Assembly: GCA_013359215.1 (NCBI GenBank)
Contig: JABWCH010000001.1
Location: 7,528 to 71,527, forward strand
Source: Candidatus Brocadiia bacterium
GTDB taxonomy: Bacteria > Planctomycetota > Uabimicrobiia > Uabimicrobiales > JABWCH01
Length of the DNA: 64,000 nucleotides
Direction: 5' to 3'
Shown here: piece after piece, positions 23,969 through 63,343 of the stretch
Layout: each line of letters begins with the position of its first letter
Position numbering within the stretch: position 1 is the stretch's first letter
The notes under the pieces: model-generated
Told to the model about the DNA's origin: nothing
Seen by the model: the letters and a program-made list of their open reading frames with translations, nothing else
Database searches by the model: none
Program-made: the position numbers and the translations under genes

Positions 23969-25048
23969 CTATTTATTGAAAGAATTTTCAAATAAGATCA
24001 AATCGGCTGTAATTTTTTTTAAAATTGCCAAAAAATTCTTCTCTTGTACTATAAAATAGATAAATATATTTAAAAAGATCAATACTAACAATAGCAGAAT
24101 AGATAAAAACAAAGAATGTACAAAACGAAATTTTAATTTGTTATAGACTCTTGGTATTAGGGATGATGTTCGTTTCCAAAAATAAAATTTTGTTTTGAAA
24201 ACCAATTTTTTTTGTAAAACTTTGTTAAGTATTTTATAGATAACATCTTCTTTTCCAAGAGATGTATTATAGAATTGTTTGATGATCTTTTCCGCTATCT
24301 CGCGAAGATTTATTCTATCCTCTTTCTCATATGGAAAAAAGCTTGATACACCATAAAGAAAAAACCAAAAAAATGGATCATGATCAGTATTGTTTATTTC
24401 CTGATTTTGTAAATAGCCAAGAATCCGCTGCCACAATATTCTTTTCTTGGGAATGATTATTTCCCTAAGGGCGGTTTTAATTGGCATTTCACTTCTAAAA
24501 GTGCCAAGAAGAAGAGTCCATAGGTTTTCAACCAAAAAAAAGCGTATATCTTCTAAACTTTCTATATTTTCAAAAATCACCCTTGAAGATTTTAATCCTG
24601 CCCTTTTAAATAAAGCAGGCATAACATAGAAAAAAAGATGGTTTTCAGGTCTGTTGTTAAGCTGAAGTTCTTCAAGAGATTTAGAAATAAAAAGAGTTTT
24701 TTTTGTAAGTTCTACTAGTCCGGAATTCCCTATACCTTGAAATTCAAACTTAGGGAAGTAGAATCCAACATTTTTGTAAACCAGTGTCCAAAGTTGCCAA
24801 TAGCAATAAAAAATTTCCCAATTCATAGAAAGAAAATTGTCTATCCTTTCAAATTCTCCTTCTGCTGTATTCCAAAGACAAATTTTGGAAATATTTCTAA
24901 ATTCAAAGGCGAGTTCCTCTCTATTGGAATTTTCTTGAATGCAATATAGCATACTGTAAAATCTGTTTTTGTATGCCTTGCTATCTAAAATAATAGGTTT
25001 ACGATCCCATGTACCTAAAGTTTTCCAAAAGGAATGAAATCTGTGCAT
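23969..25048 (-). CDS. Unknown-function protein, C-terminal TM anchor; paralog of 52569-53657
   Basis: Blocks shared with the 362-aa ORF: M(H/F)RFH(S/T), NWEI(F/L)YC(Y)W, NHL(F/L)F.VMP.L.KR, (V/I)(R/Q)FFL(V/I)(E/Q)(N/K)LW.LL, DPFFWFF.YG. Both also have a C-terminal hydrophobic helix (SLFLSILLLLVLIFLNIFIYFIV). Confidence 0.6.
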   Translation of the reverse strand: MHRFHSFWKTLGTWDRKPIILDSKAYKNRFYSMLYCIQENSNREELAFEFRNISKICLWNTAEGEFERIDNFLSMNWEIFYCYWQLWTLVYKNVGFYFPKFEFQGIGNSGLVELTKKTLFISKSLEELQLNNRPENHLFFYVMPALFKRAGLKSSRVIFENIESLEDIRFFLVENLWTLLLGTFRSEMPIKTALREIIIPKKRILWQRILGYLQNQEINNTDHDPFFWFFLYGVSSFFPYEKEDRINLREIAEKIIKQFYNTSLGKEDVIYKILNKVLQKKLVFKTKFYFWKRTSSLIPRVYNKLKFRFVHSLFLSILLLLVLIFLNIFIYFIVQEKNFLAILKKITADLILFENSFNK

Positions 25049-25107
25049 ATAAATTTTATTTTTATTCTTTCAAGATTTAAGAAGGTTTTACTATGAATTG
25101 CCTGAAC

Positions 25108-60631: not shown

Positions 60632-61154
60632 ACTCTGGAAATCGAATTTTGTACTGTCCCTGAGCCTTTTTTACATATATTTTGCCATGAATATCTGACT
60701 TGCCTTTTTGTTCTTCTCCATCTTGAGAAGTGATGATATAAGAAATGTTTTGTAAAAGATGTCCTTCCCTATCTTTGATAGTAATTTCCAATATGTTTTC
60801 TGTTTTTTCATCCCTTGAAAATTCAGTAGATTTCCCTATACTATGTTCTATTGCTATGAGTGTATTCCCTGGATATTTTACTGAAATCATTTGTGAAGTA
60901 TTTGTAAAAGCCTGTACCTGGTCGGTTACAGCCGGCTCATTTCCTATTATCAGTGTACCTGAAAATTTATCTACTACAGAGACAATGCTTATGCAGGGAA
61001 CAGACATGGAGCAGCCAACAATCTTTGCTTGCATAAAATCTTCTTTTGTCAGTATTGAGTTGCCTAGAATCGCGATATTTTTTGAAGGAAAAAATTGCAC
61101 CTGGCCTCCATGAGGGCATAGGCAGATAGCATCTTTGTTTAAAAAATGGGCCAT
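60600..61154 (-). CDS. PAAR-like / DUF4280-like spike-tip protein fused to a small beta-sandwich domain
   Basis: The N-terminal 100 aa has the Cys pattern AICLCPHGGQV...IVGCSMSVPC...IIGNEPAV, reminiscent of PAAR-like DUF4280. The C-terminus ITIKDREGHLLQNISYIITSQDGEEQKGKSDIHGKIYV resembles a carboxypeptidase-regulatory-like fold. Confidence 0.45.
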   Translation of the reverse strand: MAHFLNKDAICLCPHGGQVQFFPSKNIAILGNSILTKEDFMQAKIVGCSMSVPCISIVSVVDKFSGTLIIGNEPAVTDQVQAFTNTSQMISVKYPGNTLIAIEHSIGKSTEFSRDEKTENILEITIKDREGHLLQNISYIITSQDGEEQKGKSDIHGKIYVKKAQGQYKIRFPEFEKGADREGR

Positions 61155-63343
61155 TAATAATCCCTTCCGCGTTTTTGGATAGGTCTATTTACTTTTTGTT
61201 CTACCTGTGTACTGTTGTAACTAGAAAAAGGAATAAGAAATTTTGTATTGCCATATAGATCAAGCCTTGCTTCGCACAAGTCATTGGCTACATTGTTTAG
61301 GTTCATCTCCTTTTCTGATAAAATAATTTTCAAAGAAGATATTTTATCGTCTTGTATATTGAACAATATATCAGGCTTTTTTTCTTCTGCCAATTGCTGG
61401 AGAGTTTTTTGCCCATCTAAGATTATGTAATTAAAACTGTCTTTTTTCAAACGAACTTCTAATTTCGTCAAAGGCATCATCCAAAAGGGAAACGGCATTG
61501 TTATTTCTATTTCCATCCTTTTAGATGCAGGCTTTTCAGAGAAATCGTTTATGATAACCGCAGTCATCGTAAAGGAAACCATTTCATAGAATTTTTCTAT
61601 GTGTTCTTGCCAGCCAGCCAAGCGTGCCTTTTTCCCCCAGTATGACCGTTCCAGCCATTCTTGTATCTTAGGGGGCAGAGCTTTATCATCCAAAATAGAA
61701 GCTGCGATTCCTGTTGCTAAAGAAGCCCCTACAAAAGCTATGCCTATTGTACCTCCTGAAAGAACACCCAATCCTGATATTGCAGCCATTAAATATAGTA
61801 CTGCTGCATCAACATCGCCTTCTTGAAAATTGTCTATAGCATTCCAGGTATCCAGAATAGAAGATATGCCTGTAGTCACCTTTCCTAATAGATTTTTGCC
61901 GACAATATGAGATATTTTAGTCTCTGCGCTAAACAACTTAGTGCCATAAAATACATTGCTCGATTGGGCTTTTACAAGAGCGGTATCTATTATTTCTTCT
62001 AGTACCAATTTTTCTACCTCTTTTTTCTTTTTGAGAAAAAAGGAACTCATGTCCAACACCATATTCGCAAACTGCAAAAAACTTTTAATTTTATCTGCTG
62101 CTGTTTGGTACTTTTTATCTACAACATTATAAATAACAAGGCAAGAATTTAAAATTTTTAATGTCTTTTCAAAATTTTTATGAAATTCAGGACTAATAAA
62201 ATTCTTAGGAATTTTTTGCATATCAAAAATGGCTACTTTATGTTGATGCGAAGTTGTTATGGTAAGCTTTAACCTGCTATCATAGCTAAGAATCATGATT
62301 TGTAGCTTATAGATTGCTGTTTCTTCATGCACAATGATAGATGTTGCCATTAAAGACAAAATTTTAAAAAATGCTTTTCCTGTTTTTATAGAATTTTTGG
62401 CAATTTGATACAAATATTTCCGCAACCAGCCTTCTTTTTGATATTGGTTAGAAAGAAAGGCGAAACCCTTTTCTGATAGCAGCAAATTGGCGTTGAATTC
62501 ATAGTATATCTCATCAGCAGTTTTGGCCTCTTCTTCTGTATTCTCATATTCTTTCAATATATATTCAAAAAATTCTTTGTTCTCATAGGAGATCAGCCTT
62601 TCTGCTGCCTGCTCTATCCTTTCCTGGAATCCTTTTTGCGTCTTTTTCTCCTCTTCTTCCCACCTATGTATTTCCTCTTTTGTTACAAAAGACCAATAAG
62701 GCGATTTTTCTGCACCACAAATATTGTATATAATAGAAACCAAATATCTTTTGGAAACACGATCTTTCTCTTGATCCCACTTTTTATATTTTTCTATTTC
62801 GTCAAGATATAGTGAGAGGAAATATTCTCCTTCACTCAAACGATCAAATAAATAGAAGGATATGCCATCAGAATCCAAAATGCCATAATTGCTATTTTGA
62901 TCCAGAGGTATCTCATCAAACCTATGTCTAAGAGCATCTTCCTGATTTTTATAGTACTCTATACTAATGCTGGCAAGCCGAATACGCGAAATTCCAAAGA
63001 AAAAAATGCCTTTTCTAGGCATAGAAATTTTTTCGTTCTCTGCTGGCTGGTTTCCTTCCCCACCGATACATTGGTAATTTCCTTCCGCACTGATATAAAT
63101 TTCGGAATATAAAATCGCCCTATTCCCTTCCTTCTGAAAGATATAAATCCATTTTCCTTTTACTTCAACCCACCTTTCATCAGGCTTTATATACTCCCAA
63201 AAGCTCACTTTTACAGAATGGATAGGAAGTACAATCGTGTATTTTTTTCCTGATTCTAAAATCATTTTTTTTTCTGGATCATATTGAATCAATTCGCCTT
63301 TTGGCATTTTCAACCATCCTATCTTGACAATATCAAATTCCAT
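61154..63343 (-). CDS. Putative membrane-disrupting T6SS-type effector (VasX / BTH_I2691-like) with glycine-zipper TM hairpin
   Basis: The N-terminal pattern IVLPIHSVKVSFWEY...KGKWIYIFQKEG..LYSEIYISAEGNY...ISMPRKG resembles the (PvRYa / GWLYvf) N-domains of these effectors. The glycine-rich hydrophobic hairpin is AAVLYLMAAISGLGVLSGGTIGIAFVGASLATGIAASIL (DNA about 61680-61810). The stop overlaps the PAAR-like start (61154). Confidence 0.5.
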   Translation of the reverse strand: MEFDIVKIGWLKMPKGELIQYDPEKKMILESGKKYTIVLPIHSVKVSFWEYIKPDERWVEVKGKWIYIFQKEGNRAILYSEIYISAEGNYQCIGGEGNQPAENEKISMPRKGIFFFGISRIRLASISIEYYKNQEDALRHRFDEIPLDQNSNYGILDSDGISFYLFDRLSEGEYFLSLYLDEIEKYKKWDQEKDRVSKRYLVSIIYNICGAEKSPYWSFVTKEEIHRWEEEEKKTQKGFQERIEQAAERLISYENKEFFEYILKEYENTEEEAKTADEIYYEFNANLLLSEKGFAFLSNQYQKEGWLRKYLYQIAKNSIKTGKAFFKILSLMATSIIVHEETAIYKLQIMILSYDSRLKLTITTSHQHKVAIFDMQKIPKNFISPEFHKNFEKTLKILNSCLVIYNVVDKKYQTAADKIKSFLQFANMVLDMSSFFLKKKKEVEKLVLEEIIDTALVKAQSSNVFYGTKLFSAETKISHIVGKNLLGKVTTGISSILDTWNAIDNFQEGDVDAAVLYLMAAISGLGVLSGGTIGIAFVGASLATGIAASILDDKALPPKIQEWLERSYWGKKARLAGWQEHIEKFYEMVSFTMTAVIINDFSEKPASKRMEIEITMPFPFWMMPLTKLEVRLKKDSFNYIILDGQKTLQQLAEEKKPDILFNIQDDKISSLKIILSEKEMNLNNVANDLCEARLDLYGNTKFLIPFSSYNSTQVEQKVNRPIQKRGRDY

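Follow-up and report, generated by a model that had tools for sequence, protein, structure and literature searches.

A divergent contractile injection locus of type VI secretion-like composition with a predicted GTPase and giant membrane-protein module in Candidatus Brocadiia

A 64,000-nt stretch of contig JABWCH010000001.1 from a Candidatus Brocadiia bacterium (assembly GCA_013359215.1; the whole stretch is referred to here as the window) carries a real and intact contractile injection system (CIS) locus, which is extremely divergent and resembles the type VI secretion systems (T6SS) in its composition. Encoded with the machine parts are two predicted GTPases, a STAND-like NTPase, two giant proteins with single transmembrane (TM) helices and two tail-anchored proteins; judged from sequence, this module matches no described family that was tested, and its combination with an injection machine was not found in the systems compared. 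The reading that we favour, with a probability of roughly 0.4, is a very divergent, cell-anchored T6SS-like CIS in two transcription units, with the tail-anchored and GTPase-TM-giant module as the counterpart of TssL and TssM. That the module and the machine are functionally linked is plausible, at somewhat less than even odds.

Machine genes, cargo genes and their organisation

Searches covered the proteins of the window and used Pfam, NCBIfam, PHROG, PADLOC and PDB profiles, together with hhalign comparisons against assembled reference sets (pADAP Afp1-16, four proteobacterial T6SS clusters and phage P2). In the ORF list of the window, 21 co-directional open reading frames (ORFs) run on the minus strand from 63968 to 23969, and all those named in an earlier annotation made without database searches (the sequence-only reading) are present at the same coordinates on this strand. 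The array is split into a cargo operon (63343-55412) and a machine operon (53657-23969, ~30 kb) because an ISKra4-type insertion sequence (IS) and an intrinsic terminator lie between the genes of a 986-aa protein (lon986) and a 362-aa protein (u362); this single terminator separates the two units. Within 53657-23969 terminator-like sites are no more frequent than in shuffled sequence, and a terminator-like hairpin is located at 23894-23880, 3' of the last gene (u359). The structural genes and the Nudix gene of the machine operon are as follows.

34263 to 35642, minus strand: TssK-like baseplate protein (weak match), 459 aa
31602 to 32237, minus strand: 211-aa candidate gp7/TssG/gpI-type wedge partner (unconfirmed), overlapping the sheath gene by 14 nt
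29798 to 31615, minus strand: candidate sheath protein, 605-aa ORF, proposed from position and N-terminal motif
29364 to 29786, minus strand: gp25/GPW/Afp9-type wedge protein (sheath initiator), 140 aa
27869 to 29380, minus strand: putative Baseplate-J/gp6/TssF-like wedge protein (weak match), 503 aa
27478 to 27900, minus strand: inner-tube protein, 140 aa
25592 to 27382, minus strand: VgrG/Afp8-type spike, 596 aa, with a gp27-like N-terminal part and an OB-fold/needle
25108 to 25578, minus strand: Nudix hydrolase, 156 aa, between the VgrG and u359 genes, 13 nt after VgrG (Pfam NUDIX 5.2e-21)

The sequence-only reading had proposed a contractile injection locus, and this is upheld by the spike, the gp25 protein, a PAAR-like protein and a T6SS-type effector. 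The spike scores above the cut-off of Pfam Phage_base_V (1.2e-5; 26 bits against 23.8), matches TIGR01646 (7.6e-6) and TIGR03361 (7e-4) in part, and gives hhalign values of P=1e-7 against Afp8 and P=5.6e-4 against T6SS VgrG. The gp25 protein carries the motif ELGERYLSPDYG (ExGER...P.YG) and is matched by PHROG 120, 'baseplate wedge subunit' (4.5e-4), with hhalign values of P=1.9e-5 against Afp9, P=5e-4 against P2 gpW and P=0.22-0.46 against TssE. Both assignments, and that of the Nudix hydrolase, were therefore confirmed; against the hhalign reference sets, firm confirmation was obtained for gp25 and the spike only.

The remaining structural assignments fared less evenly. The tube protein has no Pfam match, and its hhalign values are P=0.004 against Afp1/5, P=0.045 against P2 FII and P=0.14-0.2 against Hcp; its homologues follow the sheath gene in three related contigs described below (L004, L005 and, in two copies, L008; E 4e-9 to 5e-17), and the L008 copies match Pfam T6SS_HCP under its cut-off (1.4e-3 and 4.8e-3). 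A tube protein is thus still suggested, and the Hcp part of the original call rests on these sub-threshold matches. The Baseplate-J assignment is suggested by an hhalign value of P=0.05 against Afp11, over an R-A-x-x-x-x-D-x-x-x-L motif, and by synteny, as a homologue lies 3' of gp25 in L004 (E=2.4e-4; hhalign P=0.0024). The TssK-like protein matches NCBIfam TIGR03353 at E=1.1e-3 (residues 75-209 against model positions 61-212; 18 bits, far under the cut-off of 100), has no Pfam or PDB match and is not significant in hhalign against two TssK proteins, so that the call stands as tentative. The gpI-like protein shows a short motif resemblance to P2 gpI, and the proposal was unsupported by Pfam, NCBIfam, PHROG, PDB or hhalign (TssG and P2 I references).

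The 605-aa ORF has its probable start at ATG 31591 (codon 9, preceded by a Shine-Dalgarno sequence), which gives a protein of 597 aa. It belongs to a family of 570-605 aa that is taken as the sheath mainly because of synteny in three relatives, where it adjoins or precedes the tube gene (L004, L005 and L008), and secondly because of an invariant N-terminal Y-P-x-I-x-L (Y14, P15, I17 and L19 are invariant in the family, and YPGIALLE in the window resembles YPGVYLSE of Afp2). The protein is therefore a candidate sheath on gene position and a YPGIxLxE motif. Together with its relatives P0002 and P0003 it has no match in Pfam, PHROG or NCBIfam; a PDB profile search found no sheath, tblastn against phages found nothing, and hhalign was not significant (P of at least 0.26 against Afp2-4, P=0.23 against P2 FI). 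No TssB or TssC was matched by Pfam or NCBIfam in the window, which holds this one ORF instead of a pair. A TssB-TssC fusion was considered and rejected, as the alignments are co-linear but non-significant after multiple testing (P=0.017 for a 4-sequence TssB, P=0.18 for TssC). The phage-type single-chain sheath that had been named from the letters was consequently matched by none of the profiles or references (Afp2-4, TssB/C, P2 FI). As a set, the sheath candidate, tube, spike, PAAR, gp25, J-like, gpI-like and TssK-like proteins make up the phage-derived half of a T6SS.

Relatives of these proteins are rare. Word-index searches with the sheath candidate and with the two GTPases (gtp667 and gtp2343) each returned the query alone, and an exhaustive phmmer search with the sheath candidate against 1.84 billion cluster representatives returned itself and two proteins of 30-31% identity (3 clusters). 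A pattern-based scan of the GTDB species-representative genomes with the sheath alignment found no relative, and the same alignment recovered one 8.6-kb contig from JGI metagenomes; the alignment of the GTPase paralogues found nothing in GTDB or in viral contigs, and the viral-contig scans as a whole returned nothing. The three related contigs (7.9, 5.8 and 8.6 kb; 41-56% GC) share the order PAAR-like protein, sheath candidate, tube (two in L008, as tandem genes at 6228-7396), VgrG, an unrelated ~466-aa protein, gp25 and J-like protein. Identical proteins to those of the window were recovered from several independent SRA runs, on short contigs. From one family member to another the accessory module may vary.

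The cargo operon and the elements that separate it from the machine operon are as follows.

61154 to 63343, minus strand: 729-aa putative cargo toxin, VasX/BTH_I2691-like, with a C-terminal glycine-zipper/TM region (NCBIfam NF041559)
60600 to 61154, minus strand: PAAR-like (DUF4280) tip protein of 184 aa, extended at its C-terminus (Pfam DUF4280)
58943 to 60631, minus strand: 562-aa protein, no family match, overlapping its neighbours
58387 to 58980, minus strand: 197-aa protein, no family match
55412 to 58372, minus strand: lon986, 986 aa, possibly with a Lon-type Ser-Lys protease domain at ~180-292; C-terminal part helical
53812 to 55402, minus strand: ISKra4-family IS, transposase 53846-55288
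53754 to 53803, minus strand: intrinsic terminator between the IS and u362, with a perfect 17-bp stem, a 16-nt loop and T9

The 729-aa protein matches NF041559, 'T6SS effector BTH_I2691 family', at E=8e-9 over residues 483-587 only and under the family cut-off; it contains a hydrophobic segment at 533-551, and its gene overlaps that of the PAAR-like protein by 1 nt. The VasX-like proposal thus holds for the C-terminal region, with the rest of the protein unmatched. The PAAR-like protein matches DUF4280 over residues 23-96 (E=0.004, under the cut-off), and its homologues lie directly upstream of the sheath gene in L004 (4e-8), L008 (1.8e-7) and L005 (2.9e-3). The tip and effector-family matches, both under curated cut-offs, fall in adjacent overlapping genes. 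Profile-library scans found no family for the 562-aa and 197-aa proteins; the former is a possible effector adaptor or chaperone by its position. The Lon-like proposal is tentative, as lon986 has nothing in Pfam or NCBIfam and its sole PDB match, to Lon protease 2 (8dvh), is non-significant (E=0.48), aligning over TSMGAAFA and EKLKIA motifs that hold the catalytic Ser and Lys.

The IS that had been proposed is present (transposase NF033572, 3.9e-32; 27-nt terminal inverted repeats at 53812-53838 and 55376-55402, 85% complementary), and the same insertion is found in an independent public contig (L001). The order given earlier, terminator then IS, is reversed: lon986 is followed by the IS (53812-55402), the terminator (53803-53754) and u362. 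An IS between the units, several undetectable canonical parts and the extreme divergence could be taken as signs of a decaying, non-functional remnant of a CIS island disrupted by the IS. This is extremely unlikely, since the IS is intergenic and disrupts no ORF, ORFs of 1531, 1769 and 2343 aa remain uninterrupted in sequence of 34% GC, the G motifs and Walker motifs are intact, and identical proteins recur in the independent runs.

With regard to composition, the island genes have GC3 values (GC content at third codon positions) of 0.26-0.38, and FadB, GlgX and aspartate kinase, housekeeping genes of the flank, have values of 0.42-0.46. Overall GC is 0.33-0.35 in the island (23969-63343) and 0.40 in the flank (1-23500). 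The low GC and GC3 fit either horizontal acquisition or different constraints.

The predicted GTPases, the STAND-like NTPase and the giant proteins

The genes of the module are distributed through the machine operon.

52569 to 53657, minus strand: u362, 362-aa predicted tail-anchored protein, TM 302-320, first gene of the long operon
45554 to 52585, minus strand: gtp2343, 2343 aa, with a predicted GTPase (1-410), TM 417-435, then ~1900 aa with repeats and coiled coil, beta-rich at the C-terminal end
40194 to 45503, minus strand: cc1769, 1769 aa; a globular N-terminal part of ~500 aa and TM 510-528 precede ~1240 aa of coiled coil, and the C-terminal domain is globular
35650 to 40245, minus strand: STAND-like P-loop NTPase, 1531 aa, with a zinc-ribbon insert
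32256 to 34259, minus strand: gtp667, 667 aa, with a ~340-aa N-terminal domain and a predicted GTPase (341-667), no TM helix
23969 to 25048, minus strand: u359, 359-aa predicted tail-anchored protein, TM 305-323, last gene of the operon

In both gtp667 (G1 GDTASGKT, G3 DYPG, G4 TKSD, G5 SAL) and gtp2343 (G1 GITGMGKT, G3 DFKG, G4 TKAD, G5 SAV) the motifs occur in order, and G1 GxxxxGKT, G3 DxxG, G4 TKxD and G5 SA-x can be read directly as those of guanine-specific TRAFAC GTPases; the two proteins are predicted to belong to this class, in agreement with the GTPase pair of the sequence-only reading. Their G domains (86-406 in gtp2343, 341-667 in gtp667) are paralogous (E=7e-28). Pfam matches to the gtp667 G domain are weak (MMR_HSR1 0.024, Dynamin_N 0.025, Roc 0.13), and at E<=10 that of gtp2343 has non-GTPase, chance-level matches only.

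The STAND-like protein contains Walker A GTSGVGKT (235-242) and Walker B LLVVWDH (393-399), with a zinc-ribbon-like CxxC..CxxC insert between them (295-326; window 39268-39363). Its Pfam matches, all under the cut-off, are AAA_16 (9.5e-6; 26.6 bits against 32.6), AAA_22 (1.3e-4), nSTAND6 (0.016) and nSTAND1 (0.019), so that a P-loop NTPase is indicated and the STAND label is kept as 'STAND-like'. No recognised repeats were found in its ~1100-aa C-terminal region. A module of ~115 aa is common to this protein (992-1108; window 36922-37272) and gtp2343 (647-759; window 50309-50647; E=1e-9); it lies in the first gtp2343 repeat, ends NRLLLED(A/V)Y, is matched by no Pfam family and may serve as a homotypic adaptor.

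Single TM helices, tandem repeats and internal paralogies were all confirmed for these proteins. Three ~224-aa tandem repeats of 55-66% identity are present in gtp2343 (window 48527-50917), and cc1769 contains five or six ~86-aa tandem repeats of 50-68% identity (window 42339-43901) and further repeats, over spans 535-1055 and 1160-1560. Such repeats in both giants suggest, at the sequence level, recent expansion and possibly variable length. Basic residues on the N-terminal side of both helices imply an N-in, C-out orientation. Outside the G domain the giants have no Pfam or NCBIfam family, and cc1769 matches SMC-type coiled coil only.

The proteins u359 and u362 are paralogues (30% identity, E=2e-42) that bracket the machine operon; in each, a single hydrophobic helix ~40 residues from the C-terminus indicates a tail anchor. 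No family was found for either in Pfam, NCBIfam or PADLOC, and the u362 gene overlaps gtp2343 by 17 nt. The N-terminal part of gtp667 may be homologous to them: hhalign gives P=0.02 (best of 10 shuffles 0.06), and co-linear motifs can be aligned (NHLxFxVMPxLxKR with ANYIMGYMVPELFKL, and DPFFWFF with NPWIWFF). PDB searches (profiles of the sheath, tube and GTPases; TssK-like and lon986 singly) gave no meaningful match beyond the non-significant one to Lon.

The placing of these genes bears on whether module and machine belong together. Junctions computed with the longest ORFs agree with what had been reported, being overlaps or gaps of 3-18 nt from the 2343-aa gene to VgrG with the exception of 50 nt (gtp2343 to cc1769) and 95 nt (tube to VgrG), and by these lengths the genes of the NTPases and giants are in tight translational linkage with those of the structural proteins. 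The gene order holds; its reading as an interleaving of NTPase and structural genes is tentative, since it hinges on the weak TssK-like and the unsupported gpI-like calls. When these two are removed, the NTPase block is merely upstream of the block of sheath, gp25, J-like, tube and VgrG genes, the five best-linked structural genes, which are contiguous in the window. The same point supports a looser linkage, in which the giants, GTPases and STAND-like protein would form an independent surface or host-interaction module, or cargo, that shares a transcript with a minimal CIS whose true anchor and recycling parts are encoded elsewhere. The short contigs of the relatives hold the same structural genes contiguously without module genes, and the DNA searched is the window, outside which lie ~7.8 kb more of a contig reported to be 71.8 kb long and the remaining genome. 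Against such an arrangement are the gaps of 3-18 nt and overlaps among the STAND, TssK-like, gtp667, gpI-like and sheath genes, the scatter of module paralogues along it (the genes for u362 and gtp2343 open the operon at the 5' end, that for gtp667 is central, and that for u359 closes it at the 3' end), the lack of a terminator excess within it and the uniform composition over the island. We consider a loose linkage rather unlikely.

The favoured reading and its comparison with known systems

In the cell-anchored, T6SS-like reading, the cargo operon would provide tip and cargo (a VasX/BTH_I2691-type membrane toxin, the PAAR-like protein and three unknowns), and the machine operon would provide the machine parts with a lineage-specific membrane and control module. 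We infer the roles of the NTPases and giants, the identities of the sheath and gpI-like proteins and the cell anchoring. The proteins u362 and u359, with gtp2343, would take the roles of TssL (C-tail-anchored) and TssM (NTPase, TM and large extracytoplasmic domain). TssL is anchored by a C-terminal tail (PMC3426401), and the Walker-A NTPase of TssM is needed for formation of the TssM-TssL-Hcp complex (PMC3346141). The parallel is one of analogy, and neither homology nor membership is implied. The sequence-only reading had put forward the giants as a substitute for TssJLM or as a trigger, and what remains of this is the architecture, the hhalign comparisons with TssL and TssM not being significant.

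Encoded between the TssK-like and gpI-like genes, gtp667 might couple the baseplate to the membrane module through GTP-dependent G-domain pairing. Many GTPases work by nucleotide-dependent dimerisation, and it is this together with the position of the gene that suggests such pairing. The repeat and coiled-coil ectodomains of gtp2343 and cc1769 could form an envelope-spanning or protruding stalk, or a contact sensor, and the STAND-like NTPase, which shares the ~115-aa module with gtp2343, may gate assembly or firing. A more specific form of this proposal is an undescribed T6SS-like subtype in which TssJLM would be replaced by a GTPase-switch module (tail-anchored protein, GTPase-TM giant and soluble baseplate-associated paralogue), STAND-gated G-domain pairing would set where and when the sheath assembles or fires, and the ectodomains would act as contact antennae. 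We regard this form as doubtful.

Several results weigh against the favoured reading. In hhalign, u359/u362, the GTPase domains and the N-terminal part of cc1769 gave nothing significant beyond the P-loop against TssL and TssM (Burkholderia, Ralstonia) and TssK, and hmmsearch does not detect the similarity of the gtp667 N-terminal part to u359/u362. The ectodomains, at 1240-1900 aa, exceed what would fit a normal periplasm. The sheath and gpI-like proteins are recognised by no profile, the TssK-like, J-like and tube signals are all sub-threshold, and structure prediction was unusable both for the GTPase paralogues (AlphaFold, 2 sequences; predicted local distance difference test score, pLDDT, of 42.5) and for the sheath family (AF2, 3 sequences; pLDDT 37). 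The proteins flanking the structural genes in the relatives include no NTPase, giant or TssK-like homologue on contigs of 5.8-8.6 kb; L008 instead encodes an 876-aa VWA protein with a faint TssR_VWA match (155-2782), upstream of its PAAR and sheath genes. Lastly, ClpV, TssA and TssJLM could be encoded outside the window.

The detectable parts fit neither canonical T6SS nor Afp/PVC-type extracellular CIS (eCIS), as had been noted at the outset. With canonical T6SS (i-iii) the locus shares the VgrG-type spike, the DUF4280 PAAR-like protein, the BTH_I2691/VasX-family region, the gp25 wedge, a weak TssK signal and the lack of tape measure and fibres; in architecture, the gene pair of a tail-anchored protein followed by an NTPase-TM-large ectodomain protein is like tssL-tssM. 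It differs from them in having one sheath candidate of 597-605 aa in place of TssB and TssC, in gp25 and spike proteins with stronger scores for Afp9 and Afp8 than for TssE and VgrG, and in its [NT]KxD GTPase pair, STAND-like NTPase and repeat proteins of 1769-2343 aa. No TssJ, TssL, TssM, TssA or ClpV was found among the window ORFs with Pfam and NCBIfam (ClpV and TssJ were sought by these libraries alone, and TssA by hhalign against the structural proteins only), and hhalign did not detect TssF or TssG. The absences on which the sequence-only reading had relied (the TssB/C pair, ClpV, TssJLM, TssA, tape measure, Afp15 and Afp16) therefore hold within the window.

The scores against Afp proteins are also a ground for viewing the locus as an Afp/PVC-like particle, an extracellular CIS or tailocin set free by lysis, in which the giants would be fibres or cargo. 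When the structural candidates were compared by hhalign with Afp7-12, Afp16 and the Afp tube and sheath sets, counterparts were found for Afp8, Afp9 and, weakly, Afp1/5 and Afp11; compared with the Serratia entomophila pADAP afp1-16 cluster, the gp25 protein corresponds to Afp9, the spike to Afp8, the tube to Afp1/5 (scoring better there than against Hcp) and the J-like protein to Afp11, and the YPG motif of the sheath candidate resembles Afp2/3. The locus is unlike that cluster in having no counterpart of Afp6, 7, 13, 14, 15 or 16, in a sheath candidate that cannot be aligned to Afp2-4 and in its gene order. No tape measure, Afp15-type AAA+, Afp16 cap, Afp13 fibre or Afp7 tube initiator/LysM protein was found in the window (Pfam and NCBIfam; phmmer against pADAP Afp1-16), nor was a lysis cassette detected. 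The lack of tape measure, fibre, cap and AAA+ proteins, together with the T6SS-family effector region, favours a cell-anchored T6SS-like system over a released particle; the weak TssK signal points the same way, and the N-in TM anchor and cytoplasmic GTPase of the giants are ill suited to release. An extracellular system is accordingly very unlikely. A prophage or tailocin was rejected as no capsid, terminase, tape measure or lysis genes are present.

Subtype iv T6SS (Amoebophilus asiaticus and Bacteroidota) are cell-anchored CIS made of eCIS-like parts: the sheath is a single chain, TssJLM and ClpV are lacking, and no membrane anchor has been identified (PMC12210884). The locus is like them in being, on the favoured reading, a cell-anchored CIS with eCIS-like parts and without TssJLM or ClpV, this comparison being by description and not by sequence. 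Subtype iv retains recognisable Afp/Cis families (tape measure, Cis15 ATPase, Cis16, Aasi_0556-type anchor or fibre), none of which was detected here, and is unlike the present locus with its TssK-like and T6SS-type effector signals.

A different explanation is that of an NTPase-centred conflict or cell-death system, in which the STAND-like protein and the GTPase pair would sense an invader or stress and then fire a cytoplasmic CIS into the membrane of their own cell. The 'DO-GTPase' logic (PMC7159879) is mirrored by a pair of paralogous TRAFAC-type GTPases whose partners bear TM helices, and the locus is like the DO-GTPase/GAP1 and STAND conflict systems described there in having two such GTPases in one operon, one of them fused to another domain, with components that bear TM helices, repeat proteins that vary rapidly and, close by, a STAND-like NTPase. 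The module shared by the STAND-like protein and the GTPase giant would be a potential adaptor, the possible Lon-like protease and the Nudix hydrolase are of types common in conflict systems, the island is of low GC with an IS, and CIS that mediate cell death from the cytoplasm exist in Streptomyces (PMC10066040). The Streptomyces CIS are similar in depending on lineage-specific accessory proteins, not TssJLM, and in a possible stress or cell-death link; compared by description, they differ in their recognisable eCIS-like Cis families, and the published descriptions consulted contain no GTPase, STAND or giant module. The DO-GTPase systems have a conserved Walker B glutamate, whereas G3 here is DYPG or DFKG with no glutamate in or beside it. 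Neither G domain matched Pfam DO-GTPase or GAP1 at E<=10, GAP1, GASH and FNIII were found in no ORF (GASH likewise even at E<=10), there was no GAAD match, and the main text of PMC7159879 (Kaur, Burroughs, Iyer and Aravind 2020) contains no mention of T6SS, VgrG, sheath or phage tail. PADLOC returned no defence-system match of note, and the STAND match is under the Pfam cut-off. Furthermore, the T6SS-type pore-forming effector and PAAR-like tip suggest export to a target, and the TssK-like protein suggests docking to a membrane complex. A conflict system is therefore unlikely.

Flanking genes and significance

The flank encodes FadA/B, GlgX, an amidase, aspartate kinase and DapB (Pfam, on matching contigs), with a Ser/Thr kinase and a prepilin-like protein, and no RNA family was found in the window with Rfam. 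On the plus strand, 11598-15100 encodes a protein of 914 aa whose N-terminal domain is of the PilB/GspE (MshEN-like) type, and then a 158-aa protein with the prepilin-type N-terminus MSLIELMVAIAII; these are pilus or pseudopilus genes and are unrelated to the injection locus. On the minus strand, a second Nudix hydrolase (6935-7852), CoA pyrophosphatase-like by a weak match, lies in the housekeeping flank, and a 728-aa protein (4200-6386) has an N-terminal signal-peptide-like segment, no NCBIfam match and no similarity to the proteins of the locus. At the other end, of the three Logan contigs with the 729-aa gene at least L001 and L002 end ~95 nt upstream of an SprT-like gene, just beyond the window end at 64000, which hints at a repeated element immediately outside the window.

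The system is nearly an orphan, which sets a practical limit on its study. Its structural proteins are too divergent for standard CIS and T6SS detectors, most being without a Pfam match, and current censuses may therefore be incomplete. The grouping of CIS follows the means by which the phage-like tail is anchored and set off: T6SS use TssJLM and eCIS use fibres, and thylakoid and cytoplasmic variants exist as well. If the favoured reading is true, an anchor or trigger composed of GTPase switches together with a STAND-like NTPase and giant repeat proteins that cross the membrane once would be a new anchoring solution, and it would connect injection machines with NTPase-based sensing, two fields that have been studied apart.

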